Assembly (NCBI GenBank): GCA_024637045.1
Contig: JAGXFX010000018.1
Span: 3,817 to 67,816, forward strand
Length of the DNA stretch: 64,000 nucleotides
Reading direction: 5' to 3'
From: Soehngenia sp.
GTDB lineage: Bacteria > Bacillota > Clostridia > Tissierellales > Tissierellaceae
The notes beneath the pieces are model-generated. The model worked only from the letters and a program-made list of their open reading frames with translations. It did no database searches and was not told where the DNA came from. This document shows positions 36,822 through 60,550 of this stretch, piece by piece. Every line of letters begins with the position of its first letter. The stretch's first letter is position 1. The position numbers and the translations under genes were made by a program.

Positions 36822-37904
36822 ATGGAAAGGAAATACATATTGGCTATCAATCCGGGATCCACATCAACAAAAGTATCAGTTTTCAAGGGCCAGGATGAGA
36901 TTAAAACTAAGAAGCTGGATCATATGTTGGAGGAACTAAACAAGTTTGATACAATTACCGATCAGTATGACTATAGGATGGGTATAATAATTGACTGGCT
37001 GCACGAAGAAGAAATTCAACCAAGTGAGCTGCAGTGTGTTGTAGGTAGAGGCGGACTTTTGAAATCAATGCCTAGCGGGACTTATAAAGTAACGGAATCG
37101 ATGGCAGAAGATTTAAAAATCGGAGTACAAGGACAACACGCATCAAATCTGGGAGGACTTCTAGCAAGAGGAATAGCGGATAGTGAAGAGATACCTTCCT
37201 TTATAGTTGATCCTGTAGCTGTTGATGAGTTTCAGGAGGTAGCAAGAATATCCGGACAAAAGACAATTGAAAGAAAATCACTGGTACACGCATTGAACAT
37301 AAAGGCAGTTTGTCATAGATATGCAGTGGAAAACAATACGACTGTAGATAAGCTAAATATTATTGTAGCACATCTTGGTGGCGGCATAACGGTTTCACCA
37401 ATCCTGCAAGGGAAAATAATCGATGCCAACAATGCCAATCAAATGGGACCGTTTTCACCGGAAAGAGCTGGTGGATTACCTGTTGGGGATGTTGTGAAAA
37501 TGTGTTTCTCAGGCGAGTACACTGAGGCAGAGATGAAGAAAATGATTCAGGGCAAGGGAGGACTGATGTCTTACCTGGGTACCTTTGATGGTAGAGAGGT
37601 CATGGAAAGAATTGAATCAGGCGATGAATATGCAAAACTTATCTATGAAGCAATGGCGTATCAAATAGGTAAGGAGATAGGACTTTGTGGTGCTGTGCTT
37701 AAAGGAGACATTCAAGGAATTATTCTTACTGGAGGTCTGGCTTATTCACAATATCTGGTTGATTATATAAAAAATATGGTATCATTTATGGCTCCAGTTA
37801 CAGTCTATCCAGGAGAAGATGAAATGGAGGCTCTTAACAAAGGAGCTAGAAGGGTACTTGATGGAGAAGAAAATTTCAAGATATACGAGGAAGAGGTGGA
37901 ATAA
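36822..37904 (+). CDS. buk: Butyrate/branched-chain acid kinase, copy 1
   Basis: [39 protein letters not shown]. Confidence 0.92.
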   Translation: MERKYILAINPGSTSTKVSVFKGQDEIKTKKLDHMLEELNKFDTITDQYDYRMGIIIDWLHEEEIQPSELQCVVGRGGLLKSMPSGTYKVTESMAEDLKIGVQGQHASNLGGLLARGIADSEEIPSFIVDPVAVDEFQEVARISGQKTIERKSLVHALNIKAVCHRYAVENNTTVDKLNIIVAHLGGGITVSPILQGKIIDANNANQMGPFSPERAGGLPVGDVVKMCFSGEYTEAEMKKMIQGKGGLMSYLGTFDGREVMERIESGDEYAKLIYEAMAYQIGKEIGLCGAVLKGDIQGIILTGGLAYSQYLVDYIKNMVSFMAPVTVYPGEDEMEALNKGARRVLDGEENFKIYEEEVE

Positions 37905-38800
37905 TGGCTAAGAACTTTGAAACTTTATTCAAACTTGCCCAGGAAAAGGGACCTAAGACAATGGCTGTTGCTGTTGCGCAGGATGAAGATGTATTGGGAG
38001 CAATTAAGCTAGCATATGAGAAGGGAATAGTTGATCCGATATTGGTAGGAGACAAGGAGAGCATTGAAAAGATTGCCGAGAAGATTTCCTTTAATATTGA
38101 TGGGATCCAGATTGTAGATGAAAAGGATGGAGTTGAAGCGACAAGAAAAGCTACTGCTATGGTAAGTAGTGGAAAAGCACAGGTTCTTATGAAGGGGTTA
38201 ATTGATACATCAGTTATAATGAAGGCAGTTCTTGACAAGGAAATTGGCTTGAGAACAGACAGTATAATAAGTCACGTCGCAGTGTTTGATGTTCCGACTT
38301 ACCACAAGGTATTCATTGTAACGGATGCTGCCATGATAATAGCACCGGATTTGAATCAGAAAAAACAAATAATTGATAATGCAGTTAAACTTGCTCATTC
38401 ATTAGGTATTCCTGAACCGAAGGTTGCTGTTTTGGCAGCTAAAGAAAAGGTAAGTCCAAAAATGGAAGCTACAGTTCATGCCAAGGAGTTGGCTGATATG
38501 AACAAAGCAGGGGAAATCAAGGGATGTATTGTTGATGGACCTTTAGCTCTGGATAATGCAGTAAGCAAGGAATCAGCAAGAATAAAGGGAATAGATAGTG
38601 TAGTTGCAGGAGATGCAGATATTCTACTGGCTCCAGACATCGAAGCAGGGAATGTTCTTTACAAGGCATTAACCTTTTTAGCCAATGCAAAGTCTGCAGG
38701 TCTGATTGTAGGAACCAGCAGACCAATTGTACTGACATCAAGAGCTGATAACGAGGAAGCTAAGCTTAATTCAATTGTTCTTGCCACATTAATGGCATAA
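37904..38800 (+). CDS. ptb: Phosphate butyryltransferase
   Basis: LMKGLIDTS, SHVAVF, DGPLALDNA, PDIEAGN.LYK, LTSRAD. Confidence 0.93.
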   Translation: MAKNFETLFKLAQEKGPKTMAVAVAQDEDVLGAIKLAYEKGIVDPILVGDKESIEKIAEKISFNIDGIQIVDEKDGVEATRKATAMVSSGKAQVLMKGLIDTSVIMKAVLDKEIGLRTDSIISHVAVFDVPTYHKVFIVTDAAMIIAPDLNQKKQIIDNAVKLAHSLGIPEPKVAVLAAKEKVSPKMEATVHAKELADMNKAGEIKGCIVDGPLALDNAVSKESARIKGIDSVVAGDADILLAPDIEAGNVLYKALTFLANAKSAGLIVGTSRPIVLTSRADNEEAKLNSIVLATLMA

Positions 38801-38812
38801 CAGGAGGGATGT

Positions 38813-39886
38813 ATGAAAAACTTTAGATTATTGGTAATAAACCCGGGGTCAACATCCACAAAAATTGGCGTTTATGAAGATGAAAAATTGGTATTTGAAG
38901 AAACGTTAAGACATGATGTTGAGGAGCTTTCAGAATTTGACAAAATGATCGACCAATTACAGTTTAGAAAAGATATCATAGTGAAAGCACTTGAAAAAAA
39001 CAAGACTGAAATAGAAAGTATGGATGCAGTAGTAGGCAGGGGAGGGCTTTTAAGCCCCATCGAAGGTGGAACCTATGAAGTAAATGATAAGATGCTTGAA
39101 GATCTTAGAGCAGCCAAAAGAGGAGAGCACGCATCGAATCTTGGCGCAATCCTTGCGTTTGAAATTGCGCAACAAGCCAAGGCAAGAGCGTTTATAGTCG
39201 ATCCGGTAGTGGTAGACGAATTGCAGGATGTTGCAAGAATCTCTGGATTGAAGGAAATTGAAAGAATAAGTATCCTTCATGCTCTTAACCAGAAAGCTGT
39301 TGCGAGAAGGTATGCCAGGGAGCAGAATATAAAATATACAGATTTAAATCTTATTGTTGCCCACTTGGGTGGCGGAATTTCTGTAGGAGCTCACAAAAAA
39401 GGCAGAGTAGTGGATGTTGGAAATGCACTTGATGGAGAAGGAGCTTTTTCACCGGAAAGATCAGGTGGTCTTCCTGTCGGAGACCTTATCAAGCTTTGCT
39501 TCTCAGGCAAATACACTCTGGATGAAATAAAGAAAATGATAGTGGGAAACGGTGGTTTGGTATCTTATCTGGGAACAAATGACGCCCGCGAAGTTGTTAA
39601 GAAAATTGAAGATGGAGATGAGTACTCAGAACTTATCTTCAAAGCAATGGCGTATCAGGTATCAAAAGATATTGGTGCATGTGCAGCGGTTCTCAAAGGC
39701 GATGTGGACCAGGTAATAATTACAGGAGGTATTGCATACGACGACATGTTTACTGGCTGGATAAAGGATATGGTCAGCTACATAAGCGGAGTAACAGTAT
39801 ATCCAGGAGAAGATGAGCTTCAGGCCCTTGCTGAGGGTGGACTGAGAGTGCTTAATAATGAGGAATCTCCAAAAGTTTACAGTTAG
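38813..39886 (+). CDS. buk: Butyrate/branched-chain acid kinase, copy 2
   Basis: [40 protein letters not shown]. Confidence 0.94.
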
Positions 39887-39895
39887 GAGAAGAGA

Positions 39896-40570
39896 ATGCT
39901 AAAAGACAATAGAATTAGAATAATCATAGGACATTATGGAAGCGGCAAAACCGAATTCAGTGTAAATTATGCTGTTAAGTTGGCTGAAGAGGGCAAGAAA
40001 GTTGCTCTGGCGGATTTAGATGTTGTAAACCTGTATTTTAGAAGTAGAGAAAAGGCTGAGATTCTTGAAGCAATGGGAATAAGGGTAATAGGTGGAGCTA
40101 TCAAAGGTTCCGGTGTTGACCTTCCTGCAATAACAGGAGAAGTTTTGACGCCATTGCAGGATAAATCCTATGAAGCTATACTTGATGTAGGAGGCAATCC
40201 TCAGGGAGCAAGAACTCTTGGAAGATATCATAGCTACTTTACGGAAGGTGAGTACGATATGTTTTTCGTACTTAATGCGAATAGACCTGAAACTGCGACT
40301 GCTGAACAGGCTATAGAATATATTGTAAAGATTCAGGATGTCGCAAGAGCAAAGGTGACAGGAATAATAAACAATACACATCTTCTCAAGAGTACAACTG
40401 TAGAAGATGTTATGAAAGGCTATAAATTGGCCAAGGAGGTTTCAAAAGAGACTGGCTTGCCAATTAAGTATAATGTTTGTCTTGAGACTTTGGTAGATAA
40501 GCTTCCGGAGGAAATTGGAGACAACGTTTTCCCAATTAAGTTGTATATGAGGGAAGAATGGATGCTATAA
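39896..40570 (+). CDS. Uncharacterised P-loop NTPase
   Basis: GHYGSGKTE Walker A, DLDVVNLYFRSRE, DVGG. Confidence 0.8.
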   Translation: MLKDNRIRIIIGHYGSGKTEFSVNYAVKLAEEGKKVALADLDVVNLYFRSREKAEILEAMGIRVIGGAIKGSGVDLPAITGEVLTPLQDKSYEAILDVGGNPQGARTLGRYHSYFTEGEYDMFFVLNANRPETATAEQAIEYIVKIQDVARAKVTGIINNTHLLKSTTVEDVMKGYKLAKEVSKETGLPIKYNVCLETLVDKLPEEIGDNVFPIKLYMREEWML

Positions 40571-40589
40571 AAAAAGGAGGATCAGAAAT

Positions 40590-40811
40590 ATGGCAAAGGT
40601 AAAAGGCAGAACAACATTTGAGGAGGACCTATGCAAGGGCTGTGGGCTTTGTGTAACGGTTTGTCCTGTGAACATTATTTCACTTGATACTGCTAGGATC
40701 AATAAGAAAGGGTATCACCCAGCAGCTATAGAAGAGATGAATAAGTGTATAGCTTGTACAAATTGTGCTACTATATGTCCAGATGTAGTCATTACTGTAG
40801 AAAGATTATAA
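40590..40811 (+). CDS. 2x[4Fe-4S] ferredoxin / oxidoreductase delta subunit
   Basis: CKGCGLCVTVCP, CIACTNCATICPD. Confidence 0.92.
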   Translation: MAKVKGRTTFEEDLCKGCGLCVTVCPVNIISLDTARINKKGYHPAAIEEMNKCIACTNCATICPDVVITVERL

Positions 40812-40824
40812 GGAGGGGTTACAT

Positions 40825-41886
40825 ATGACAAAAGTTCTCATGAAAGGGAATGAAGCTGTAGGAGCAGCTGCAATTGCGGCTGGATGCCATTATTTCTTTG
40901 GATATCCAATTACTCCTCAAAGTGAAGTCCCTGAATATATGTCAAGAGAGTTACCAAAAGTTGGAGGATCTTACGTACAGGCTGAATCAGAAGTAGCAGC
41001 AATAAACATGGTATACGGAGCATCTGGTTCAGGAGCAAGAGTTATGACATCATCATCAAGTCCAGGAATCGCTCTTAAGCAAGAAGGAATATCATACTGT
41101 GCTGGAGCAGAGCTGCCTTGTGTTATAGTTGATATGATGAGAGGTGGACCAGGACTTGGAACCATCCAGCCTGCTCAGGGAGACTACTTCTTGGCGACAA
41201 GAGGCGGCGGAAACGGAGATTACAGACTAATTGTTCTTGCACCTGCAGATGTTCAGGAACTAGTGGATCTTGTAATGGAAGGATTTGACCTTGCAGATAT
41301 TTACAGAACACCGGTTATGATTCTTGGTGACGGTATGATTGGTCAGATGATGGAGCCAGTTGAATTTAAGTATCAACAAAGAACAGACTTGCCAGAAAAA
41401 GACTGGGCAACAAGAGGAAAAGGAAAAGGCAAGCAAAAAAATATCATCAATTCACTTTACCTTGAGGCAGAAGAGCTTGAAAAACACAACCATCATCTTC
41501 AGGCAAAGTATGCAGAAATAAGGGAAAAAGAGAAGAAAGTTGAAGTGTATAACATTGAGGATGCAGATATTGTAATTACAGCATACGGTACAACTTCACG
41601 TATAGCCAAGACAGCAATTGCAAAGCTTGAGAAGGAAGGCTACAAAGTTGGAATGATAAGACCGATCAGTCTATACCCATTCCCTAACGAAGCGTATGAA
41701 AAGATCAACGACAACTGTAAAGGAGTACTTACCGTAGAGATGAGTACTGGGCAGATGATTGACGATGTAAAGCTTTCACTAAACGGAAGAATTCCGACAT
41801 ACTTCCACGGACGTTCAGGTGGAATGGTTCCTGGTCCTGAGGAAATTGTTGAGAAGGTAAAGGAAATTCTTGGAGGTGGAAAATAA
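40825..41886 (+). CDS. vorB: 2-oxoacid:ferredoxin oxidoreductase alpha subunit (VorB-like, branched-chain)
   Basis: GYPITPQSE, QAESE.AA, TSSSSPG, RGGPGLG.IQP.QGDY. Confidence 0.88.
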   Translation: MTKVLMKGNEAVGAAAIAAGCHYFFGYPITPQSEVPEYMSRELPKVGGSYVQAESEVAAINMVYGASGSGARVMTSSSSPGIALKQEGISYCAGAELPCVIVDMMRGGPGLGTIQPAQGDYFLATRGGGNGDYRLIVLAPADVQELVDLVMEGFDLADIYRTPVMILGDGMIGQMMEPVEFKYQQRTDLPEKDWATRGKGKGKQKNIINSLYLEAEELEKHNHHLQAKYAEIREKEKKVEVYNIEDADIVITAYGTTSRIAKTAIAKLEKEGYKVGMIRPISLYPFPNEAYEKINDNCKGVLTVEMSTGQMIDDVKLSLNGRIPTYFHGRSGGMVPGPEEIVEKVKEILGGGK

Positions 41887-42632
41887 TGGCAATTGTATTT
41901 GAAAAAACAAAAGGATTAACTGACAAGCCTACCCATTATTGTCCAGGTTGTACGCACGGAATAATCCACAGACTTGTTGCTGAGGTAATGGAGGAAATGG
42001 ATCTTCTGGACAATGCAATAGGAGTTGCACCTGTAGGGTGTTCAGTGCTTGCATATGAATATTTTAACGTTGATATGCACGAAGCAGCTCATGGTAGAGC
42101 TCCTGCTGTAGCTACTGGAATAAAGAGAGTTCATCCTGAGAATTTTGTATTTACTTATCAGGGAGATGGAGACTTGGCATCAATCGGTACTGCTGAGATT
42201 GTTCATGCAGCTCATAGAGGAGAAAAGTTTACAACAATATTTGTTAACAATGCAATTTACGGAATGACTGGCGGACAGATGGCGCCTACTACTCTTATTG
42301 GACAGAAAACAACCACTTCACCATATGGTAGAGATGAAGCTACAACTGGTAAGCCAATCAAGATGTCAGAACTTTTGGCAACAATAGATGGTGCGGCTTT
42401 TGTTGAGAGAGTTGCAGTAAACAATCCTGCAAACATCAGAAAAGCAAAAAAGGCCATAAAAGAAGCATTCAAGGTTCAATTAGAGGGTAAAGGATTCGGT
42501 ATTGTTGAGGTGCTTTCAACTTGTCCGACAAACTGGGGTCTTACACCTGTGGAAGCTATGAAATGGTTAGAGAAGGATATGATGCCTTACTATCCATTAG
42601 GGAACTTCAGAAAGCCAGAGGAGGTTGAATAG
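41886..42632 (+). CDS. 2-oxoacid:ferredoxin oxidoreductase beta (TPP-binding) subunit
   Basis: YCPGCTHG, HGRA, TPP motif QGDGD...NNAIYGMTGGQ. Confidence 0.9.
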   Translation: MAIVFEKTKGLTDKPTHYCPGCTHGIIHRLVAEVMEEMDLLDNAIGVAPVGCSVLAYEYFNVDMHEAAHGRAPAVATGIKRVHPENFVFTYQGDGDLASIGTAEIVHAAHRGEKFTTIFVNNAIYGMTGGQMAPTTLIGQKTTTSPYGRDEATTGKPIKMSELLATIDGAAFVERVAVNNPANIRKAKKAIKEAFKVQLEGKGFGIVEVLSTCPTNWGLTPVEAMKWLEKDMMPYYPLGNFRKPEEVE

Positions 42633-42634
42633 AT

Positions 42635-43192
42635 ATGGATGAAAGATTGATTATTGCCGGATTTGGTGGACAGGGAGTCATGGCCATGGGACAGTTGTTG
42701 ACTTATTCTGGAATGATTGAAGGGAAAAACGTGTCATGGTTGCCATCATACGGTCCTGAAATGCGTGGAGGAACAGCAAACTGTAACGTAACAATATCAA
42801 CAGAGCCAGTTGGATCACCCGTTGTCCTTGAAGCAACAACTGCAGTAGTATTAAACCTGCCTTCTATGGATAAATTTGAGGAAAGTGTTGTACCAGGTGG
42901 GAATCTAATGATAAATTCATCACTGATTGAGAAGAAGGCAGAAAGAGATGACATAAATGTTTACTATATTCCAGCCAACGAAATAGCCAATGAAATCGGA
43001 AATGCTAGAATCGCGAACATGGTAATGCTGGGAGCATATATTGAAATAACTGGATCAATTAAGATTGATTCTGTATACGAGGCTTTTGGAAAGGTATTTG
43101 GAGAGACAAAGGCTCATCTACTACCAGTTAACAAGGATGCCCTTAAAAGAGGAGCAGAAGTTGTAAGAGAGCAGATGAAAGTAAACGCATAG
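42635..43192 (+). CDS. 2-oxoacid:ferredoxin oxidoreductase gamma subunit
   Basis: AGFGGQG, SYGPEMRGG, NMVMLGA. Confidence 0.9.
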   Translation: MDERLIIAGFGGQGVMAMGQLLTYSGMIEGKNVSWLPSYGPEMRGGTANCNVTISTEPVGSPVVLEATTAVVLNLPSMDKFEESVVPGGNLMINSSLIEKKAERDDINVYYIPANEIANEIGNARIANMVMLGAYIEITGSIKIDSVYEAFGKVFGETKAHLLPVNKDALKRGAEVVREQMKVNA

Positions 43193-43194
43193 CA

Positions 43195-43230
43195 TAATAA
43201 AAGCCAGACCCTAGGGTCTGGCTTTTATTA
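43195..43230. terminator. Bidirectional terminator (perfect 36-bp palindrome)
   Basis: TAATAAAAGCCAGACC-CTAG-GGTCTGGCTTTTATTA between convergent genes. Confidence 0.88.
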
Positions 43231-44289
43231 TATCAGTGCAGCTTCAAATTCATCCATAAGCTTGTCAACGGTTGTAATCTTATCGACAAGATATCCTCTC
43301 TTGCCAATAAACACCAAGCCGTTGTCCACATCACCTTCTACTGCCCTTACAAGAGCACTAGTTATACAATATGGTGTTGTCGCTGGATTACAGCCTGTCA
43401 GGCAGTTGTAGCATTTGGTTATCTTTTCTTTCTCCAAGGAGACCTTCTTAATATAAGGATTAATAACAGCCTGTCCAGGCATTCCAACAGGGCTTACAAT
43501 ATAATTGATGGTCTCTTCTTTGGATTCAACATATGCCATCTTGTAATTATCATGGGCATCACATTCCTTGGTTGCAACAAATCTGGTTCCCATTTGAACA
43601 CCATCTGCTCCTAAATCCAGGAATTTTTTTATGTCTTCACCATCATAAATTCCACCTGCTACGACAATCTGTGCTGTCTTTCCTGATTTCTCCTCAAGGG
43701 GCTTAATAGCATTCTTTACCTCAGTAAAAATATCTTCAAGTTTTGGAATAGATCCACTTGAAAGAACTTCTTTACTGAATCCAAGATGTCCGCCTGCAAG
43801 AGGTCCTTCGATTATTATCAGCTCTGGAAAATAGTCGTGTCGTTTCATCCATAACTTGGTAATTACTGCAGCAGCCTTACCTGAGGAGACTATGGGAGCG
43901 ATTTTTGTCTTACTTCCCTTTACAAGTCCCGGTAGGTCATTTGGCAAACCTGCTCCAGAAATTATCAAATCAATTTTTTCTTCCACTGCCGCTTTTACTG
44001 TTTCAGCATAATTTTCAATGGCAACCATAAGATTTACCCCAACTATTCCAAGAGGACTTTTTTCCCTTGCCAGTCTTATTTCTTTTTTTAATGCTCTGAT
44101 ATTTGCTTCTTTAGTATTGGTCATGAAATCGGGCTCTCTAAATCCTATCTGAACTCCTGAAATAACACCGACTCCACCTCTGTTTGCAACAGCTGATGCA
44201 AGTCCTGAAAGAGATACTCCTACGCCCATTCCTCCCTGAATTATGGGTAGACGGGTCGTCTTATCTCCAATTTGCAATTGTTTCATCAA
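43228..44289 (-). CDS. Nitronate-monooxygenase-family FMN protein, FabX-like
   Basis: IIQGGMGVG, GAGLP, EGPLAGGH, TRF..TKECDA, SPVG.P, C-x2-C-x3-C-x7-C cluster. Confidence 0.8.
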   Translation of the reverse strand: MMKQLQIGDKTTRLPIIQGGMGVGVSLSGLASAVANRGGVGVISGVQIGFREPDFMTNTKEANIRALKKEIRLAREKSPLGIVGVNLMVAIENYAETVKAAVEEKIDLIISGAGLPNDLPGLVKGSKTKIAPIVSSGKAAAVITKLWMKRHDYFPELIIIEGPLAGGHLGFSKEVLSSGSIPKLEDIFTEVKNAIKPLEEKSGKTAQIVVAGGIYDGEDIKKFLDLGADGVQMGTRFVATKECDAHDNYKMAYVESKEETINYIVSPVGMPGQAVINPYIKKVSLEKEKITKCYNCLTGCNPATTPYCITSALVRAVEGDVDNGLVFIGKRGYLVDKITTVDKLMDEFEAALI

Positions 44290-44301
44290 TACACCTTCTC
44301 T

Positions 44302-44733
44302 CTATTTATCTATGGCGAATAAGAATTCACCTTCTGCAGCTACTTCACCATCAACATAAGCAGTACCCTGACCGATTCCTATTGCACCACGCAATTTTAT
44401 TATCTCTACATCCATTTTAAGGACATCTCCCGGCTGGACCTTCTTTTTAAACCTGAATTTGTTTATGCCTGCAAAATAAGGTGTTTTACCTTTAAAGTCA
44501 TCTCTTGCCAAAAGAATGACTGCGCCAACCTGTGCCATGGTCTCAATTATTATTACACCAGGCATAACGGGATTTCCAGGGAAATGTCCTTGAAAAAAAG
44601 GTTCATTTATTGTAACCAACTTATATCCAGTTCCGGCTTTGCCTTCTTCGGTGATTTCAACCTTATCTACAAAAAGAAATGGTTGCCTGTGTGGAATAAG
44701 ATTCATAATATCGTTGATATTGTAGGTATTCAC
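44302..44733 (-). CDS. fabZ: 3-hydroxyacyl-ACP dehydratase
   Basis: [31 protein letters not shown]. Confidence 0.96.
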
Positions 44734-44897
44734 TAGTATACACCTCCTTTTGATTAAACGTCAGGAAATAAAATATTGATTAAATCCTCATTTTGTACTA
44801 TACTTGTCTTAAGTTTGCATGTGCCTATAAACAATAATAATTTAAAAACGAAAAATTTGCAAACTTTTAATCCCCCTAAAAAACAGGAGGTGGTAAA

Positions 44898-45905
44898 TTG
44901 AATAAAATATCTGTAGGAATCACAGGAATAGGAAGCTATGTTCCCGAAAATGTGATGACCAACGATGACCTCGCCAAGATGGTTGATACTAATCATGAAT
45001 GGATAGTGTCAAGAACCGGTATCGAGGAGCGAAGAATTGCTGACAAGGATCAACCAACATCAGATCTTGCCACGAAAGCATCATTAAAGGCTCTTGAAGA
45101 TGCATCAATTGCACCGGAGGAACTGGACCTGATAATTGTTGCAACGGCAACACCTGACTATATATTTCCTTCAACAGCTGCAATGGTACAAAAAGACATC
45201 GGAGCCACAAAAGCTGCTGCATTTGATATAAGCGTCGGTTGCTCAGGTTTTGTTTACGGTCTGGTTACCGGAGCAAACTTTATTTCATCGGGAATGTATA
45301 AAAAAGTACTTGTAATAGGAGCAGAAACCCTGTCAAAGATAGTTGATTGGGAGGACAGAAATACCTGCGTTTTGTTTGGAGACGGAGCGGGGGCGTGTAT
45401 TTTGGAACCATGTGACGAAAGTTTTGGAATTCTTTCTTCAGAGCTTGGGTCAGATGGTGTCAAAGGAGACGTTTTAATAGTACCTGGAGGAGGGTCAAAA
45501 AACCCTGCTACAGCAGAGACAGTGAAAAACAAGCTTCATGCCATCAGGATGGATGGTAAGGAAGTGTTTAAGTTTGCAGTAAGAGTAATGGAACAATCCT
45601 CAATGAGAGTTCTGGAGAGTGCAGGACTGTCGAAAGAGGAATTGGATTTCATGATTTCTCACCAGGCAAACAGCAGAATTATTGATGCAGCAATGAAAAA
45701 GCTAGGATTGAGTAAGGATAAGACCCATGTTAATCTTACAAAATATGGGAATACATCTGCAGCCTCCGTGCCAGTAGCTCTGGATGAGGCTGTTAAAAGC
45801 GAGCTTATAAAAAAAGGCGACAATTTGCTTCTTATTGCATTTGGAGCTGGATTGTCATGGGCATCTGTAGTCCTTAAGTGGAATAAGGAGGTTAGAAATG
45901 TTTGA
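44898..45905 (+). CDS. fabH: Beta-ketoacyl-ACP synthase III (TTG start)
   Basis: RTGIEERR, AFDI..GCSGF, LFGDGAGA, HQAN.RI, GNTSAAS. Confidence 0.96.
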   Translation: MNKISVGITGIGSYVPENVMTNDDLAKMVDTNHEWIVSRTGIEERRIADKDQPTSDLATKASLKALEDASIAPEELDLIIVATATPDYIFPSTAAMVQKDIGATKAAAFDISVGCSGFVYGLVTGANFISSGMYKKVLVIGAETLSKIVDWEDRNTCVLFGDGAGACILEPCDESFGILSSELGSDGVKGDVLIVPGGGSKNPATAETVKNKLHAIRMDGKEVFKFAVRVMEQSSMRVLESAGLSKEELDFMISHQANSRIIDAAMKKLGLSKDKTHVNLTKYGNTSAASVPVALDEAVKSELIKKGDNLLLIAFGAGLSWASVVLKWNKEVRNV

Positions 45906-46857
45906 TTCAAGATTGAAGGATCTTCTTGGAATCAAGTACCCCATATTCCAAGGAGGGATGGCATGGGTTGCAACAAGTGAACTGGCAGCTGCAGTTTCAG
46001 AAGCTGGCGGACTTGGAATAATTGCAGCTGGTAATGCACCTGGGGAATATGTACGGGATGAGATCAGGAAGTTAAAAGAAATGACCGACAAACCATTTGG
46101 CGTTAACATTATGCTATTATCGCCGTTTGTAGAAGATGTTGTAAATATTATATGTGAAGAAGGAGTTCCTGTTGTTACAACAGGAGCAGGAAATCCAGGA
46201 AAGTTTCTCCAAAGACTCAAGAACCATAATATAAAAGTCATTCCTGTGGTGCCTTCGGTGTCTTTGGCAAAGAGATTGGAAAAGCAAGGCGTAGATGCCT
46301 TGATCGTCGAGGGAACCGAAGCAGGAGGTCATATTGGAGAGATTACAACCATGGCTCTTGTCCCTCAGGTTTGCGATGCTGTAAGCATTCCAGTAATAGC
46401 TGCTGGAGGAATTGCCGATGGAAGAGGTGTGGTTGCAGCTCTGGCACTTGGAGCAAACGGTGTACAGTTGGGAACCAGATTTGTATGCTCAACTGAAGCC
46501 AAAGTCCACCAGAACTACAAGGATAAGCTTATCAATGCGAAGGACAGAGATGCTTTGGTAACTGGAAGAAGTACAGGACATCCTGTAAGAGTTATTAAGA
46601 ACCAGTTTACCAGAGAATTCATGGAACTTGAAAAGGCAGGAACATCATTGGAAGACCTTGAAAAGATGGGGTCAGGAAGACTTCGCCTGGCAGTAGTTGA
46701 TGGTGATGTTGATAAAGGTTCTGTTATGTCAGGACAGATTGCCGGGATGATTAATGACATCAAGCCATGTAGAGAAATAATTGAACAATTGATTAAGCAG
46801 GCTAAAGAGGCATTAGGTGGCCTTAATGGTCAGGAAGGAGGTGAGAGAAATGAGTAA
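45898..46857 (+). CDS. fabK: Enoyl-ACP reductase II
   Basis: YPIFQGGMAWVA, TDKPFGVNIML, EGTEAGGHIG, AAGGIADGRG. Confidence 0.93.
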   Translation: MFDSRLKDLLGIKYPIFQGGMAWVATSELAAAVSEAGGLGIIAAGNAPGEYVRDEIRKLKEMTDKPFGVNIMLLSPFVEDVVNIICEEGVPVVTTGAGNPGKFLQRLKNHNIKVIPVVPSVSLAKRLEKQGVDALIVEGTEAGGHIGEITTMALVPQVCDAVSIPVIAAGGIADGRGVVAALALGANGVQLGTRFVCSTEAKVHQNYKDKLINAKDRDALVTGRSTGHPVRVIKNQFTREFMELEKAGTSLEDLEKMGSGRLRLAVVDGDVDKGSVMSGQIAGMINDIKPCREIIEQLIKQAKEALGGLNGQEGGERNE

Positions 46858-47803
46858 GCGTGCATTTATCTTTCCTGGTCAAGGAGCACAACATATAGGT
46901 ATGGGCCAGGATTTTTTTCAACAGATAAAAGAATCCAAAATGATCTTTGAGGAAGCTGATGATACACTTAACAGTCCACTTTCAAAAGTGATATTCGAAG
47001 GTGACGAAGAGGATCTTAGAAAAACTGAAACTACTCAGCCTGCAATTCTTACTGCAAGCATTGCAATGCTAAGAGCACTTGAAAAAGAAGGGATCGACTG
47101 TGATTGCACAGCGGGGCTTAGTCTTGGTGAATACAGTTCACTTGTAATGAGTAAGGCCTTGAGATTTCAGGATGCTCTGTCCATAGTAAGACAAAGAGGG
47201 AAATTTATGCAGGAAGCAGTACCTAACGGTGTAGGAGGCATGGCAGCAATACTTGGGTTGGACAGATCAAAGTTGCCGGAGGTTCTCTTGGCTGCAAAGG
47301 ATTATGGTATTGTGGAGGTTGCAAACTACAATAGCCCAGAGCAGATTGTAATATCCGGAGAAAAGAAGGGATTAAAAATTGCCTGTGCAAAGGCTTTGGA
47401 GGTAGGCGCCAAAAGAGCTGTTGAGCTCCCAGTAAGTGCTCCATTCCATACATCAATGCTTTCTCCTGCAGGGGAGAGACTTAAGATTGAGCTTGAAAAA
47501 TTGAGTATAGGAGAATTTCAGAAGAAGGTAATTACAAATGTTGACGGAAAGGCAATAGACAGCAAGGATCAACTGGTATCAAAGCTTGTTGACCAGGTTT
47601 CGCATTCCGTACTTTGGCATCAATCAATTGAATACATGATAAATGAAGGAGTAGATACATTTGTTGAAATAGGTCCCGGGAAGTCATTGTCAGGCTTTGT
47701 CAAAAGGATTGGTAAATCCATGGACAAGGATGTAACGGCAATGAATATTTCAGATATGGACAGCTTCAGAAATACAGTTGAGAAGCTGACTAAGGGGGCT
47801 TAA
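46850..47803 (+). CDS. fabD: Malonyl-CoA:ACP transacylase
   Basis: FPGQGAQ, TQPAI, AGLSLGEY, SAPFH. Confidence 0.96.
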   Translation: MSKRAFIFPGQGAQHIGMGQDFFQQIKESKMIFEEADDTLNSPLSKVIFEGDEEDLRKTETTQPAILTASIAMLRALEKEGIDCDCTAGLSLGEYSSLVMSKALRFQDALSIVRQRGKFMQEAVPNGVGGMAAILGLDRSKLPEVLLAAKDYGIVEVANYNSPEQIVISGEKKGLKIACAKALEVGAKRAVELPVSAPFHTSMLSPAGERLKIELEKLSIGEFQKKVITNVDGKAIDSKDQLVSKLVDQVSHSVLWHQSIEYMINEGVDTFVEIGPGKSLSGFVKRIGKSMDKDVTAMNISDMDSFRNTVEKLTKGA

Positions 47804-47805
47804 TA

Positions 47806-48543
47806 ATGAATGGAAAAGTAGCTTTGGTTACTGGAGGAAGCAGAGGCATAGGCAGAAATATTGCAAAGATACTTGCCGGTGAAGGCTACAATGTAGCCAT
47901 AACATATAATAGCAATGAAGAGTTGGCAAAAGAAGTAGTAAAAGAACTTGAACACTCAGATGTGAAGGCAGCCTGCTTCAAAGCTAATATAAGCATCAAA
48001 GACCAGGTAGACAATCTTATCAAGGAAATTGAAAAAGAACTTGGTTCGATATGTGTTCTGGTAAATAATGCCGGAATAACTAAAGACAATCTCTTAATCA
48101 GGATGTCTGAGGACGACTGGGATTCAGTTATGGATGTAAATCTAAAAGGTGCGTTTCTAACCACCAAGGCAGTTGCAAGAGGAATGATGAAGAAGAGATA
48201 TGGTAAAATTATCAACATATCCTCTGTAGTAGGAGTGATGGGAAATGCAGGGCAGGGAAATTACTCTGCATCCAAGGCGGGACTCATAGGATTTACAAAA
48301 TCAATGGCAAGGGAACTTGCAAGTCGAGGAATCAGGGTAAATGCAGTTGCACCCGGATTTATCAGTACAGATATGACAGACAGTTTGAAGGAAGAAGTAA
48401 AAGAGGCTATGCTTTCAAAAATACCCCTGGGTTATTTTGCAGAGCCAGAGGAAGTTAGCAATCTGGTAGCATTTCTGGCAAGTGAAAAATCTGATTATAT
48501 AACTGGGCAGGTTATTCAGATTGACGGTGGAATGAACATATAA
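47806..48543 (+). CDS. fabG: 3-oxoacyl-ACP reductase
   Basis: [31 protein letters not shown]. Confidence 0.96.
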
Positions 48544-48562: not shown

Positions 48563-48793
48563 ATGATATTTGACAAGGTAAAGGAAATTATTGCAGAGCA
48601 GTTGGATGTAGAAATGGAAAGAATAACATTGGAAACTTCACTAATGAAGGATCTTGAAGCAGATTCATTGGATGCTGTTGAAATAATGATGGCTCTAGAA
48701 GATGAGTTTGAAATTGAGGTACCTGATGAAGATGCAGAAGGTTTCAAGAATATCGGAGATATCGTAAAATACGTTGAAGCTAAGTTGGCCTAG
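48563..48793 (+). CDS. acpP: Acyl carrier protein
   Basis: [11 protein letters not shown] phosphopantetheine motif. Confidence 0.96.
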
Positions 48794-48812
48794 ACTAAAG
48801 AGAGGTGTTAGT

Positions 48813-50048
48813 ATGAATAGAGTAGTTATAACAGGTCTTGGTGCCATAACACCTGTGGGATCAGGTAAGAATGAATTCTGGAACTCGCTTGTATCTGGGA
48901 AATCAGGCATTGACTATTTAACAAAATTCGACACAAAGGATCATGATGTTAAAATCGCAGCTGAAGTAAAAGATTTTGATCCTACAGAATATATGGGCAA
49001 AAAAGACGCAAAGAGAATGGATCTGTTTAGCCAGTATGCAATAGCGGCAACAAAACAGGCGCTTGATGATTCAGGGATAGATATGGAAAAGGTAGATACC
49101 GAAAGAGCAGGTACCATAATTGGTTCAGGCATAGGCGGAATATCAACTCTGGAGTCAGAAAAAGAAAAAATGGATGAAAAGGGACCAGGAAGAATAAGTC
49201 CACTATTTATTCCGATGATGATTTCAAATATGGCCGCAGGACAAGTATCTATGGCTTTCGGGCTGAAGGGTTCATCTATGACAATCACAACAGCGTGTGC
49301 ATCAGCTACCCACGCCATAGGTGAAGCCTTCAGAATGATCAAGTCGGGAAACCTTGATTTCGCAGTGACAGGTGGTACAGAAAGCTCAATAACCCCACTT
49401 TCAATGGCAGGATTTATTTCCATGAAGGCCTTGTCAACAAATAATGATAATCCTCAGTCGGCAAGCAGACCATTTGACAAAAACAGGGATGGCTTTGTTA
49501 TGGGTGAGGGATCCGGAATTATTATTCTGGAGGATCTTGACCATGCCTTAAACAGAGGAGCAACAATCTATGCAGAAATAATTGGATATGGTTCCACCTC
49601 AGATGCATTCCACATAACTCAACCCGATCCGGAAGCTAAAGGTGCCAGAAATGCAATGGCGCTGGCGATAAGAGAAGGTGACATTCAGTTGGAAGATGTA
49701 CATTACATTAATGCACACGGAACCAGCACATATTTTAACGACAAGCTGGAAACCCTTGCTATAAAGACTTTATTTGGTGACCATGCCAAGAACATAAATG
49801 TAAGCAGTACCAAGTCCATGACTGGACATTTACTTGGGGCAGCTGGCGGAATTGAAGCGATTGCAACTGCATTAGCCCTATATAACGGGATGATTCCACC
49901 AACAATCAATTATGAGACTGAGGATGAGGAATGTGATCTTAACTATACTCCAAATGTTGCTGTTGAAAGGGATATAACACATGCTCTCTCAAATTCTCTG
50001 GGATTTGGTGGACATAACGCAAGTATACTGTTGAAAAAGTACAATTAA
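48813..50048 (+). CDS. fabF: Beta-ketoacyl-ACP synthase II
   Basis: RVVITGLG, TACAS, SRPFDKNRDGFV.GEG, HGTST, GHLLGAAG, GFGGHN. Confidence 0.96.
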   Translation: MNRVVITGLGAITPVGSGKNEFWNSLVSGKSGIDYLTKFDTKDHDVKIAAEVKDFDPTEYMGKKDAKRMDLFSQYAIAATKQALDDSGIDMEKVDTERAGTIIGSGIGGISTLESEKEKMDEKGPGRISPLFIPMMISNMAAGQVSMAFGLKGSSMTITTACASATHAIGEAFRMIKSGNLDFAVTGGTESSITPLSMAGFISMKALSTNNDNPQSASRPFDKNRDGFVMGEGSGIIILEDLDHALNRGATIYAEIIGYGSTSDAFHITQPDPEAKGARNAMALAIREGDIQLEDVHYINAHGTSTYFNDKLETLAIKTLFGDHAKNINVSSTKSMTGHLLGAAGGIEAIATALALYNGMIPPTINYETEDEECDLNYTPNVAVERDITHALSNSLGFGGHNASILLKKYN

Positions 50049-52882: not shown

Positions 52883-53716
52883 ATGGATTACAAAATCGTA
52901 GCAGACAGTAGTTGTGATACAAACGAACAATTGGACAAGTTTATGGAAATACACAAAGTACCGTTCAAGATTGACATCGATGAAAGATCATTTATCGACA
53001 ATGAAGAGCTGGATCTTGAAGATATGGTCAAGACCATGAAGGAAAGCCCAAATCCCATTAAGTCATCCTGTCCTTCACCTGGTGACTTTAAGGAAGCGTA
53101 TGGGGATGCTGAAAATGTATTTGTGGTAACTATTTCCAAAGAACTATCAGGAACATACAACAGTGCTGCGCTTGCAAAGGATATGGCAATGGAGGAGAAT
53201 GAGAATCAGTTTGTTCATGTATTCAATTCCAAGGCTGCAAGTACAGGTGAAACTCTTACTGCCATGAAAATCCAGGAGTGTGTCAACAAGGGTATGACAA
53301 AGGATGAAATCGTTGAAACTGTAGAAAATTACATCAAGGACACAAAGACATTCTTTATATCCGAAGACCTGAGTAATCTTATCAAGAATGGAAGAATATC
53401 GAAGACACAGGGTCTGATTGCAAATGTATTGAATATCAAACCCATTATGCGAAGAGATGAAGAGGGTAACATTGAGCCTGTGGAAAAAATCAGGGGCAGC
53501 AAAAAGGCATTCAAACGACTAGCAGAAGTGATTGGTGAAAATGGATCCAATTTTGAGGAGACAGTTATTGCCATATCTCATGCAAATGCTTTGGATAAAG
53601 CTATGGAGTTGAAAAAGGACCTCGAAAAGTATAATTTCAAGGAAGTAGTAATCGTGGAAACCAAAGGCTTATCAACAGCTTATGTAAATGATGGAGGAAT
53701 AATAGTCTCCTTTTAA
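52883..53716 (+). CDS. DegV-family fatty-acid-binding protein
   Basis: IVADSSCD, SSCPSPG, ISKELSGTY.SA, L.NL.KNGRI. Confidence 0.9.
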   Translation: MDYKIVADSSCDTNEQLDKFMEIHKVPFKIDIDERSFIDNEELDLEDMVKTMKESPNPIKSSCPSPGDFKEAYGDAENVFVVTISKELSGTYNSAALAKDMAMEENENQFVHVFNSKAASTGETLTAMKIQECVNKGMTKDEIVETVENYIKDTKTFFISEDLSNLIKNGRISKTQGLIANVLNIKPIMRRDEEGNIEPVEKIRGSKKAFKRLAEVIGENGSNFEETVIAISHANALDKAMELKKDLEKYNFKEVVIVETKGLSTAYVNDGGIIVSF

Positions 53717-60230: not shown

Positions 60231-60389
60231 TTACTCTTTTTCGAACATGTCCTTAGTTGCTCCACATACGGGGCAAACCCAATCTTCCGGAAGATCTTCA
60301 AAAGCTGTTCCTGGTGCTATACCTCCATCTGGATCTCCTTCAGCAGGATCATAAACGTATCCGCATGGTCCACATACCCATTTATCCAT
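60231..60389 (-). CDS. Rubredoxin (52 aa; not in ORF track)
   Basis: Manual translation [52 protein letters not shown]; AAAGGAG RBS. Confidence 0.97.
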
Positions 60390-60550
60390 TATGCATTCTC
60401 CTTTCATAAGTGAATTTACTTAGTTACCTTATTATACCATATTTTCTAGAGATTAAACATTTAAATTTTGTAAAAGTAACTGTTAAATTAGATTATAATG
60501 CTGTAGAAGGGGTAAAAACTATATGACTAGATAATTTGGATGTGATAGCG

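Follow-up and report, generated by a model that had tools for sequence, protein, structure and literature searches.

Here, we show that the fab cluster of a Gudongella (Tissierellaceae) genome contains a FabX-like gene (43228..44286, minus strand; positions refer to the window, the 64,000-nucleotide stretch of DNA analyzed), whose product is an orthologue-grade member of the FabX/UfaA family, separate from FabK. The protein of 352 amino acids combines an FMN TIM barrel with a C-terminal four-cysteine [4Fe-4S]-type subdomain and is an additional member of an already known, widespread family. It likely takes part in making unsaturated fatty acids. Our best explanation as a whole, a FabX/UfaA member acting at the unsaturated fatty acid branch point, has in our estimation about an even chance of being correct.

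Assignment to the FabX family

The segment 43228-44733 holds two minus-strand ORFs, encoding FabZ and a protein of the nitronate monooxygenase (NMO) fold. The latter ORF spans 44289..43228; translation probably begins at the ATG at 44286, with the ribosome binding site GAGAAGG in front, resulting in a length of 352 amino acids that matches the lengths of homologues. All motifs listed in the initial annotation of this region (GGMGVG, GAGLP, EGPLAGGH, TKECDA, SPVG, and C-x2-C-x3-C-x7-C) were found in the protein. It matches PF03060 with 141 bits over residues 11-347 and, as that annotation had anticipated, carries the database labels "NAD(P)H-dependent flavin oxidoreductase" and "nitronate monooxygenase family protein".

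Sequence, fold, phylogeny, and residue conservation all support the FMN/[4Fe-4S]-type FabX identity originally proposed. In a PDB sequence search, Helicobacter pylori FabX (HpFabX) entries ranked at the top (E 3e-60, 207 bits, full length), FabKs reached about 85 bits, and true NMOs, such as PA1024-type enzymes and 4Q4K, gave local matches only, over 50-120 residues with 30-43 bits. Foldseek aligned the AF2 model (pLDDT 96) to FabX (9LT5/7E1Q) with TM scores of 0.91/0.89 and an rmsd of 2.0 Å, compared to TM scores of 0.75 for FabK and 0.65-0.74 for true NMOs. A phylogeny against FabX and FabK had been suggested at the outset; in our tree, the protein groups with the FabX family (62 rows), and the split between this family and FabK (6 rows) has an SH-aLRT support of 100%. 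P0262 (466 bits to 7E1Q) served as a stand-in for the HpFabX sequence in the family comparison. HpFabX belongs to a different subclade from the Bacillota branch and is 37% identical to the Gudongella protein.

Catalytic residues His167 and Glu160 and ACP-binding residues Arg149 and Lys137 were assigned by alignment to HpFabX, whose H182, E175, G180, R164, and K152, with roles described in PMC8626469, align to H167, E160, G165, R149, and K137. The EGPLAGGH motif supplies E160, G165, and H167. These three residues, which include the catalytic His and Glu, do not vary across alignment A1, which comprises 39 diverse family representatives, and neither do the four cluster cysteines. These cysteines (Cys292/295/299/307, C-x2-C-x3-C-x7-C) align with C300/C304/C308/C320 of HpFabX, although pairwise alignment places the first of them one residue off; their subdomain is a predicted [4Fe-4S] site. 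Among the ACP-docking positions of HpFabX, K152 and R164 of helix alpha7 are kept as K137 and R149, and R160 of this helix and T130 are replaced by Leu and Asn. The tunnel residue Y277 of HpFabX corresponds to Met in this protein and to Leu in most family members.

The standard FabK paralogue recognized in the cluster by the initial annotation (45898-46857) indeed scores 523 bits with TIGR03151, above the cutoff of 453. The FabX-like ORF reaches only 116 bits with this model and is 27% identical to the neighboring FabK, which is devoid of all four cluster cysteines. FabK was excluded as its identity, considering the score below the TIGR03151 cutoff and the C-terminal cysteine motif, which is missing from FabK.

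Genomic context and distribution

fabZ (44302..44733, minus strand; 143 amino acids; NF000582, 178 bits; TIGR01750, 171 bits) is located directly upstream of the FabX-like gene. Because the spacer comprises 15 nt, no terminator is predicted, and the pairing is conserved across the genus, the two genes are presumably co-transcribed. The divergent promoter region (44734..44897) separates this pair from six plus-strand genes: fabH (44898..45905; NF006829, 460 bits), the canonical enoyl-ACP reductase II gene fabK (45898..46857), fabD (46817..47803; TIGR00128, 321 bits), fabG (47806..48543; TIGR01830, 357 bits), acpP (48563..48793; 76 amino acids with a DSLD motif, matching ACP genes of related fab clusters in tblastn), and fabF (48774..50048; TIGR03150, 644 bits). 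fabF probably has its true start near 48810; no other long-chain ketosynthase is encoded in the genome.

Promoter-like sites were found at 44862-44834 (minus strand) and 44814-44841 (plus strand). Their -35-like boxes, TTGCAA and TTTGCA, are conserved between fabZ and fabH, the -10-like boxes overlap, and the promoter-like blocks are invariant across nine Gudongella sequences (alignment A4). The region separating fabH from fabZ also has conserved inverted TTTGCA elements. An operator was considered for these and dropped, as their positions are those of the -35 boxes in the two divergent promoter-like sites. An adjacent 2-oxoacid:ferredoxin oxidoreductase (VOR) was also ruled out as a partner, being convergent, part of a ptb-buk-VOR catabolic operon, and not a recurrent neighbor.

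The proposed linkage to fabZ and the fab cluster holds beyond this locus. The related-locus search used 9 alignment rows. The fabZ-fabX pair and its divergent arrangement relative to fabH were kept in 11 of 11 Gudongella loci, down to 70% identity, and fab clusters surround homologues elsewhere: 31 of the 80 named homologue loci, all from anaerobes, have fab/acc surroundings with fab genes within 6 kb. fabZ directly precedes the FabX-like gene in some Lachnospiraceae (L066, L075, and L077) and is non-adjacent in most homologue loci. When two flanking ORFs per side were clustered for the 80 loci, acc/fab genes and MarR were the only recurrent neighbors, and no recurrent ferredoxin, flavodoxin, or ETF gene emerged from these ORFs as a conserved electron partner. 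A rubrerythrin neighbor occurred in one genus only. The sole FabZ-NMO fusion (P0268, Paceibacterota) is without the four cysteines and was not counted as a Rosetta-stone fusion of FabZ and FabX; other long representatives are MarR fusions.

Of the 53 sampled Clostridia genomes that carry a FabX-like gene, 48 also encode FabZ, versus 197 of 300 overall, and approximately 140 sampled genomes possess FabZ without a FabX-like gene. FabK was found in 41 of the 53 genomes, FabI in 3, and FabV in 3, the remaining six being fragmentary. Given this co-occurrence, the FabX-like protein does not serve as the housekeeping enoyl reductase. A function as sole enoyl reductase in fabK-less clusters (L066, L055, and L025) was rejected since these genomes carry FabV or FabI; the L066 genome has FabV, too.

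Proposed role in unsaturated fatty acid synthesis

In its most likely role, with substrate, product, and reaction direction inferred, the enzyme, an FMN TIM barrel with a predicted C-terminal [4Fe-4S] subdomain, would bind acyl-ACP and stand where the pathway branches toward unsaturated fatty acids. The product would be cis-3-decenoyl-ACP or a near-length equivalent, to be elongated by the single FabF. FabZ and the FabX-like enzyme would be supplied from one transcript, its conserved promoter diverging from fabH-fabK-fabD-fabG-acpP-fabF.

The cluster was described initially as lacking a fabA/fabM-like gene, which we confirmed. fabZ itself is the one FabA/FabZ family gene genome-wide (single PF07977 match), fabF is present once (single strong PF00109 match), and no PF00487 desaturase gene was detected in this genome, which is 93% complete. 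Two enoyl-CoA hydratase genes lie outside the cluster, a crotonase gene beside hbd and an orphan; the latter gave the best score (150 bits, cutoff 400) in a genome-wide search that found no FabM-grade gene. Hence, this genome yielded no alternative enzyme among those known to introduce the double bond. FabM scored above the cutoff in 0 of 300 sampled Clostridia. Within the same family, Soehngenia saccharolytica is reportedly rich in unsaturated fatty acids (41% C16:1 plus C18:1), and a FabX-like gene was not found in the four Soehngenia species representatives. This suggests that a further, unknown double-bond route exists in Tissierellaceae.

The major fatty acids of G. oleilytica are iso-C15:0, C14:0, C16:0, and iso-C13:0 (PMC7763609), and those of Tissierella are dominated by iso-C15:0 (PMC9558573). 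Since no unsaturated species is among these reported major fatty acids, any product of the proposed pathway would be minor or conditional. Both these profiles and the Soehngenia result count against the initial proposal that the protein is the entry enzyme for unsaturated fatty acids.

Ferredoxin had been put forward in the initial annotation as an acceptor replacing O2. With the enoyl/acyl-thioester couple at approximately -10 mV and ferredoxin at approximately -400 mV, the transfer of two electrons would be uphill by roughly +75 kJ/mol, rendering ferredoxin thermodynamically implausible in this role. Compared with ferredoxin, trace amounts of O2, a second enoyl-ACP, or a mid-potential carrier would each be a more plausible electron sink in an aerotolerant anaerobe. 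O2 is the only known acceptor of FabX (PMC8626469).

Alternative functions

The acceptor problem of an anaerobe would disappear if the protein were a redox-neutral isomerase, analogous to FabM, converting trans-2-decenoyl-ACP from FabZ to the cis-3 isomer in competition with FabK. No net electron acceptor would be needed, and flavin and cluster would be structural or involved only transiently. The 15-nt distance from fabZ, the pairing throughout Gudongella, and the adjacency in L066, L075, and L077 agree with such a reaction, as do the findings that the isomerization step is oxygen-independent and set by the shape of the tunnel and that Escherichia coli FabA is able to substitute for FabX (PMC8626469). 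However, fabZ is not adjacent in most homologue loci, the only FabZ-NMO fusion is without the four cysteines, and the invariance of these cysteines and of the catalytic His argues for retained redox chemistry. Moreover, no FabX is known to use free trans-2-decenoyl-ACP efficiently. We regard an isomerase of this kind as unlikely.

An auxiliary enoyl-ACP reductase, whose [4Fe-4S] domain would stand in for the NAD(P)H site of FabK and take electrons from reduced ferredoxin or rubredoxin, appears quite unlikely. Low-potential donors make the reductive direction strongly favorable, and the operon of a ferredoxin-producing 2-oxoacid oxidoreductase adjoins. Furthermore, overexpression of the F. nucleatum homologue increased the MIC of a FabK inhibitor 8-fold (PMC11091888), which is compatible with some reductase activity but could also reflect titration of the drug by a structurally similar protein. 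The VOR operon, however, is convergent, belongs to the ptb-buk catabolic unit, and does not recur as a neighbor, and since 47 of the 53 sampled genomes also encode a complete FabK, FabI, or FabV and the other six are fragmentary, the FabX-like protein is nowhere clearly the sole reductase.

It is very unlikely, in our view, that the enzyme acts on a different acyl carrier substrate, such as branched-chain or longer acyl-ACP, or in a lipid-modifying side reaction, with a product that is not a precursor of bulk unsaturated fatty acids. The mostly iso-branched and saturated fatty acids of Gudongella and Tissierella (PMC7763609, PMC9558573), the lack of the FabX-like gene in the four representatives of Soehngenia, a genus with a species rich in unsaturated fatty acids, the presence of a homologue in Bacteroides rich in branched-chain fatty acids (PMC11300592), and the replacement of tunnel residue Y277, by Met in this protein and by Leu in the majority of the family, would all fit such an activity. 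In contrast, the gene is linked to core fab/acc genes and to no specialized lipid pathway, its neighbors suggest no alternative substrate, and the catalytic and ACP-anchoring residues are conserved. A genuine NMO or generic NAD(P)H flavin oxidoreductase with no role in lipid synthesis is hardly credible: although the Pfam NMO model matches and the source annotations agree, true NMOs align over 50-120 residues only (approximately 40 bits; TM, 0.65-0.74), the cysteine subdomain occupies the NAD(P)H site, and the surroundings are fab genes.

Implications

A FabX/UfaA member acting at the unsaturated fatty acid branch point would bear on a long-standing problem. The oxygen-free insertion of double bonds in clostridia and related bacteria has been debated as a question since Goldfine and Bloch. 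Zhu et al. (2009) attributed clostridial anaerobic unsaturated fatty acids to a "novel and unknown enzyme" (PMC2700279). FabX family genes inside the fab operons of many strict anaerobes are obvious candidates, and the sole known FabX mechanism needs O2. We tentatively consider it possible, albeit doubtful, that the Bacillota FabX branch represents this missing enzyme and operates independently of O2, either as a FabZ-coupled, redox-neutral trans-2 to cis-3 isomerase or as an oxidoreductase whose surface [4Fe-4S] cluster would hand electrons to a partner of mid-potential. This partner could be rubredoxin, which the genome encodes at 60231-60407, or, by dismutation, another enoyl-ACP molecule. 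The general idea of a role for FabX homologues in anaerobes is already published, as far as can be told from the title of Isabella and Clark (2011), cited in PMC11300592, and from PMC8626469 and PMC11091888. The Gudongella fabZ-fabX operon offers a compact pair for probing oxygen-independent catalysis and the acceptor.

Auto-annotation as nitronate monooxygenase conceals the FabX family. FabX inhibitors were presented as H. pylori specific, the assumption being that few human-associated bacteria carry homologues (PMC12079444). This assumption contrasts with homologues approximately 37-40% identical to HpFabX in Blautia, Agathobacter, Clostridium, Dialister, Prevotella, Bilophila, and Romboutsia.

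Comparison with known systems

H. pylori FabX (HP0773; PDB 7E1Q/7E1R/7E1S and 9LT5; PMC8626469) shares with the Gudongella protein its full-length fold (TM, 0.91; rmsd, 2.0 Å), and the FMN TIM barrel with a C-terminal four-cysteine [4Fe-4S] subdomain, predicted in the latter. The E-G-P-x-x-G-G-H motif with its catalytic His is conserved between the two, as are Glu175 and, as residues anchoring ACP, Arg164 and Lys152 (HpFabX numbering). Both genomes lack FabA/FabB and possess a single FabZ and FabF. The two proteins differ in cysteine spacing, C-x3-C-x3-C-x11-C in HpFabX versus C-x2-C-x3-C-x7-C, and in T130, R160, and Y277 of HpFabX, replaced by N, L, and M. H. pylori is microaerophilic and employs FabI, with O2 as the acceptor, whereas the host of the FabX-like gene is an aerotolerant anaerobe with FabK. 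Unlike H. pylori fabX, the Gudongella gene presumably forms an operon with fabZ.

Neisseria gonorrhoeae UfaA (NGO1024) is reported as a homologue on which the anaerobic synthesis of unsaturated fatty acids depends, its electron acceptor being unknown (Isabella and Clark, 2011, as cited in PMC11300592). By this description, it would pose the same physiological acceptor problem; however, Neisseria respires and has quinones, whereas Gudongella ferments. F. nucleatum C4N14_08920 and the Bacteroides "FabX" homologues (PMC11091888, PMC11300592) are likewise FabX family genes of strict anaerobes with FabK, annotated as nitronate monooxygenase, with inferred function. They occur in other phyla and not beside fabZ, and their overexpression phenotypes are FabK inhibitor and ceftriaxone tolerance.

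FabK belongs to the same NMO/FMN TIM barrel superfamily and shares GGM and GGH with the FabX-like protein, whose substrate would likewise be an acyl-ACP, but carries an NAD(P)H site in place of the cysteine subdomain. FabM, the trans-2-decenoyl-ACP isomerase with a crotonase fold, and FabA/FabN have folds unrelated to that of the FabX-like protein. With these enzymes there may be a functional analogy, namely the diversion of a C10 intermediate away from the competing enoyl reductase and into the cis-3 isomer.

A fabZ-fabX pair divergent from the fab cluster

The interval 43228-44733 comprises two genes, both on the minus strand: fabZ (44733..44302, 143 aa; NF000582, 178 bits), whose GTG start codon is preceded by the ribosome-binding site AAGGAGG, and a FabX-like ORF of 352 aa (44286..43228). 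They are separated by a 15-nt spacer containing GAGAAGG, and site prediction found no terminator-like site between them or just 3' of the pair. The ORF caller started the FabX-like gene at a TTG one codon upstream of the ATG at 44286; since homologues measure 352 aa, the ATG is the likely start. A gap of 164 bp separates fabZ from fabH, fabK, fabD, fabG, acpP (48563-48793), and fabF on the opposite strand. The neighboring FabK scored 523 bits on the FabK equivalog model (cut-off 453), confirming the standard FabK paralogue described in the initial annotation.

The nearest database proteins to the FabX-like protein (96% and 90% identity) both belong to Gudongella spp., and the source organism is a Gudongella (Tissierellaceae). 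The gene is present in 14/15 Gudongella species genomes, and the divergent order of fabH and fabZ-fabX was found at all 11 fetched Gudongella loci, at protein identities down to 70%. The divergent intergenic region of this genus retains two -35-like boxes (TTGCAA, TTTGCA) and overlapping -10-like boxes, and is predicted to be a compact divergent promoter pair.

A plus-strand branched-chain 2-oxoacid fermentation unit (36822-43192) lies upstream of the FabX-like gene in convergent orientation and encodes two butyrate-kinase-like proteins, a phosphate butyryltransferase, a P-loop protein, VorB-type alpha, beta, and gamma subunits, and a 73-aa delta subunit with 2x[4Fe-4S] (40590-40811). This unit could supply iso-acyl primers for FabH in an iso-C15:0-rich genus. 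Further downstream, some 3 kb from fabF and past the genes for a CCA-adding enzyme and GlmM, is a DegV-family gene (fatty-acid-binding, FakB-like; 52883-53716, plus strand).

Family membership

Pfam recovered only the nitronate monooxygenase (NMO) fold in the FabX-like protein, which reached 116 bits on the FabK equivalog model (cut-off 453). Among all PDB sequences, its top four matches were Helicobacter pylori FabX (HpFabX) entries (E 3e-60, 207 bits, residues 2-348), followed by FabKs at about 85 bits and true NMOs at about 40 bits, the latter as local matches only. An AlphaFold2 model built from an alignment of 39 family representatives (pLDDT 96, pTM 0.94) matched FabX structures in Foldseek with TM scores of 0.91/0.89 (rmsd 2.0 A) and FabKs with 0.75.

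When 1.84 billion cluster representatives were searched exhaustively with HMMER, 439 clusters matched at E<=1e-30; among them, the H. pylori cluster (P0262; 466 bits to 7E1Q) is 37% identical to the FabX-like protein. A maximum-likelihood tree with six FabKs as the root splits off the 62 FabX-family rows with an SH-aLRT support of 100%. The FabX-like protein falls into a mostly Bacillota subclade, beside Maledivibacter, Anaerovirgula, Peptoclostridium, and Clostridium, and the H. pylori cluster into a separate 15-row subclade (support 96%).

All motifs listed in the initial annotation were found, the cysteine motif being C292-x2-C295-x3-C299-x7-C307. Across the 39 aligned full-length representatives, E160, G165, G166, and H167 are among the invariant residues; the HpFabX counterparts of E160, G165, and H167 are E175, G180, and the catalytic base H182 (PMC8626469). 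Likewise invariant are the four cysteines, counterparts of the HpFabX cluster ligands C300/C304/C308/C320, with both C-x2-C and C-x3-C spacing in the family. Thus, a grouping with FabK or true NMOs does not hold, because PDB scores, fold, conserved residues, and tree place the protein with FabX. The nearest proteins carry the names "NAD(P)H-dependent flavin oxidoreductase" or "nitronate monooxygenase family protein", much as had been predicted for automatic annotation.

Some of the clusters recovered are fusions. Six 50%-identity clusters (P0124, P0161, P0172, P0217, P0232, P0249) are fusions of about 500 aa in which a DNA-binding domain of the MarR (FabT-like) type, at the N-terminus, precedes a FabX-like domain; in one, the NCBI product measures 355 aa and that of another caller 503 aa on the same contig. 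In several, the catalytic His has given way to Gln, Tyr, Pro, or Thr, the four cysteines are missing, or both, and these fusions may be FabX-derived pseudoenzyme acyl-ACP sensors joined to a fab regulator. P0268/P0271 (Candidatus Paceibacterota) combine a FabA/FabZ hotdog and an NMO-fold domain in 503 aa, annotated by NCBI as one protein on several contigs; the NMO domain keeps GGH and lacks the four cysteines.

Distribution and gene neighborhoods

In the GTDB family, the gene is present in 40/60 other genomes and 16/24 genera, and an even sample of the class (n=300) contained 53 other genomes whose match spans the full length and scores 296 bits or more. FabZ is present in 48 of these 53 versus 197/300 overall, counts cross-tabulated by hand, like those for FabK below, from representatives among which related genomes are not independent; the five gene-bearing genomes without FabZ are assemblies of 100-300 contigs, and about 140 FabZ-bearing sampled Clostridia are without the FabX-like gene. 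A shorter variant (ORFs of about 316-361 aa; 163-216 bits, 41-46% identity) occurs in G122 (C37:86359-87354), directly adjoining FabK and 3 kb from FabZ, and in eleven class-sample genomes.

Anaerobes account for all 80 of the best-matching named loci in species genomes, including Clostridium, Peptostreptococcaceae, Lachnospiraceae, Dialister, Prevotella, Desulfovibrionaceae, and Bilophila. Within 6-kb flanks, 31/80 have fab genes, in three main layouts, among them fabG-fabF-fabZ-accC-accDA-fabX in many Lachnospiraceae and fabF-fabZ-fabX-fabH in three. Common gut genera (Blautia, Agathobacter, Clostridium, Dialister, Prevotella, Bilophila, Romboutsia; L014-L093) carry family genes at 49-63% identity to the protein described here, which sits uneasily with the premise that human-associated bacteria rarely carry FabX homologues (PMC12079444).

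Role in fatty acid synthesis

As to known ALTERNATIVES for introducing the double bond, the source genome (93% complete) has one FabA/FabZ-family gene and one FabF, and no membrane desaturase was found in it. One of its two crotonase-fold genes is the crotonase adjoining hbd; the other is an orphan with 150 bits on the FabM equivalog (cut-off 400). FabZ is nearly always single-copy in the 300 sampled Clostridia, none of which had FabM above cut-off, a result of undemonstrated sensitivity as the model's control genomes likewise gave no match. [quoted passage not shown]

The FabX-like enzyme might instead run in the reductive direction, a minority possibility that fits a Fusobacterium nucleatum overexpression result (PMC11091888). 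As some clusters lack fabK, the FabX-like gene was also considered as the only candidate reductase. FabK is present in 41/53 gene-bearing genomes; the other 12 comprise three with FabI (45-46% identity to E. coli FabI), three with FabV, and six that are fragmentary. FabI lies on the same contig at the fabK-less loci L055 and L025, and the genome of the fabK-less locus L066 has FabV. Since it accompanies three unrelated reductase types, the gene serves an accessory function rather than that of the housekeeping enoyl reductase.

The enoyl/acyl thioester couple lies at about -10 mV and clostridial ferredoxin at about -400 mV; two-electron transfer would thus be about 75 kJ/mol uphill, making ferredoxin, proposed earlier as acceptor for an unsaturated-fatty-acid entry enzyme, unlikely. 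On the same grounds, rubredoxin is a more plausible one-electron partner than ferredoxin for a surface [4Fe-4S] cluster. Electrons might pass to such a mid-potential acceptor, or to O2 where present; alternatively, the enzyme might perform dismutation with a second enoyl-ACP or redox-neutral isomerization of trans-2-decenoyl-ACP supplied by the presumably co-expressed FabZ. Assays of FabX-family enzymes are reported for HpFabX only, whose only known acceptor is O2, yielding superoxide (PMC8626469). Neighbor genes of the 80 homologue loci included no recurring electron-carrier gene. The single rubredoxin gene of the genome (60231-60407, minus strand) and the fab cluster are about 16 kb apart. 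At four Herbinix loci (including L044, 4923-5516), the FabX-like gene directly follows rubrerythrin on the same strand, which may indicate a peroxide-handling link or mere shared ancestry.

Gudongella oleilytica, described as aerotolerant, has iso-C15:0, C14:0, C16:0, and iso-C13:0 as major fatty acids (Table 1, PMC7763609), and Tissierella, which also has the gene, is marked by iso-C15:0 (PMC9558573). Any unsaturated product would therefore be minor or conditional there. Genus g2 of this family is Soehngenia, the FabF of genome G065 being identical to that of S. longivitae, and S. saccharolytica proteins group with it. None of four Soehngenia species representatives had the FabX-like gene, with FabK-level matches alone (67-69 bits); the reported fatty acids of S. 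saccharolytica include 20.5% C16:1 and 21.1% C18:1. If S. saccharolytica itself is among the four genomes and these acids are made de novo, Tissierellaceae would have another route.

Comparison with known FabX systems

FabX homologues with >50% identity were reported from 1650 species in 7 phyla, "most under anaerobic conditions" (PMC8626469), those of F. nucleatum and Bacteroides already bear the name FabX, and the title of the 2011 paper on the Neisseria homologue UfaA refers to "obligate anaerobes that lack FabA". The protein described here is therefore a further member of a known family. Our analysis adds the absence of a conserved redox partner beside the family, the finding that family genes systematically accompany FabK, FabI, or FabV, a discrepancy in Tissierellaceae between carriage of the gene and the fatty acid profiles reported, and a predicted fabZ-fabX operon kept across a genus. 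Compared with HpFabX, the protein keeps the ACP anchors K152 and R164, whereas T130 and R160 are replaced by Asn and Leu.
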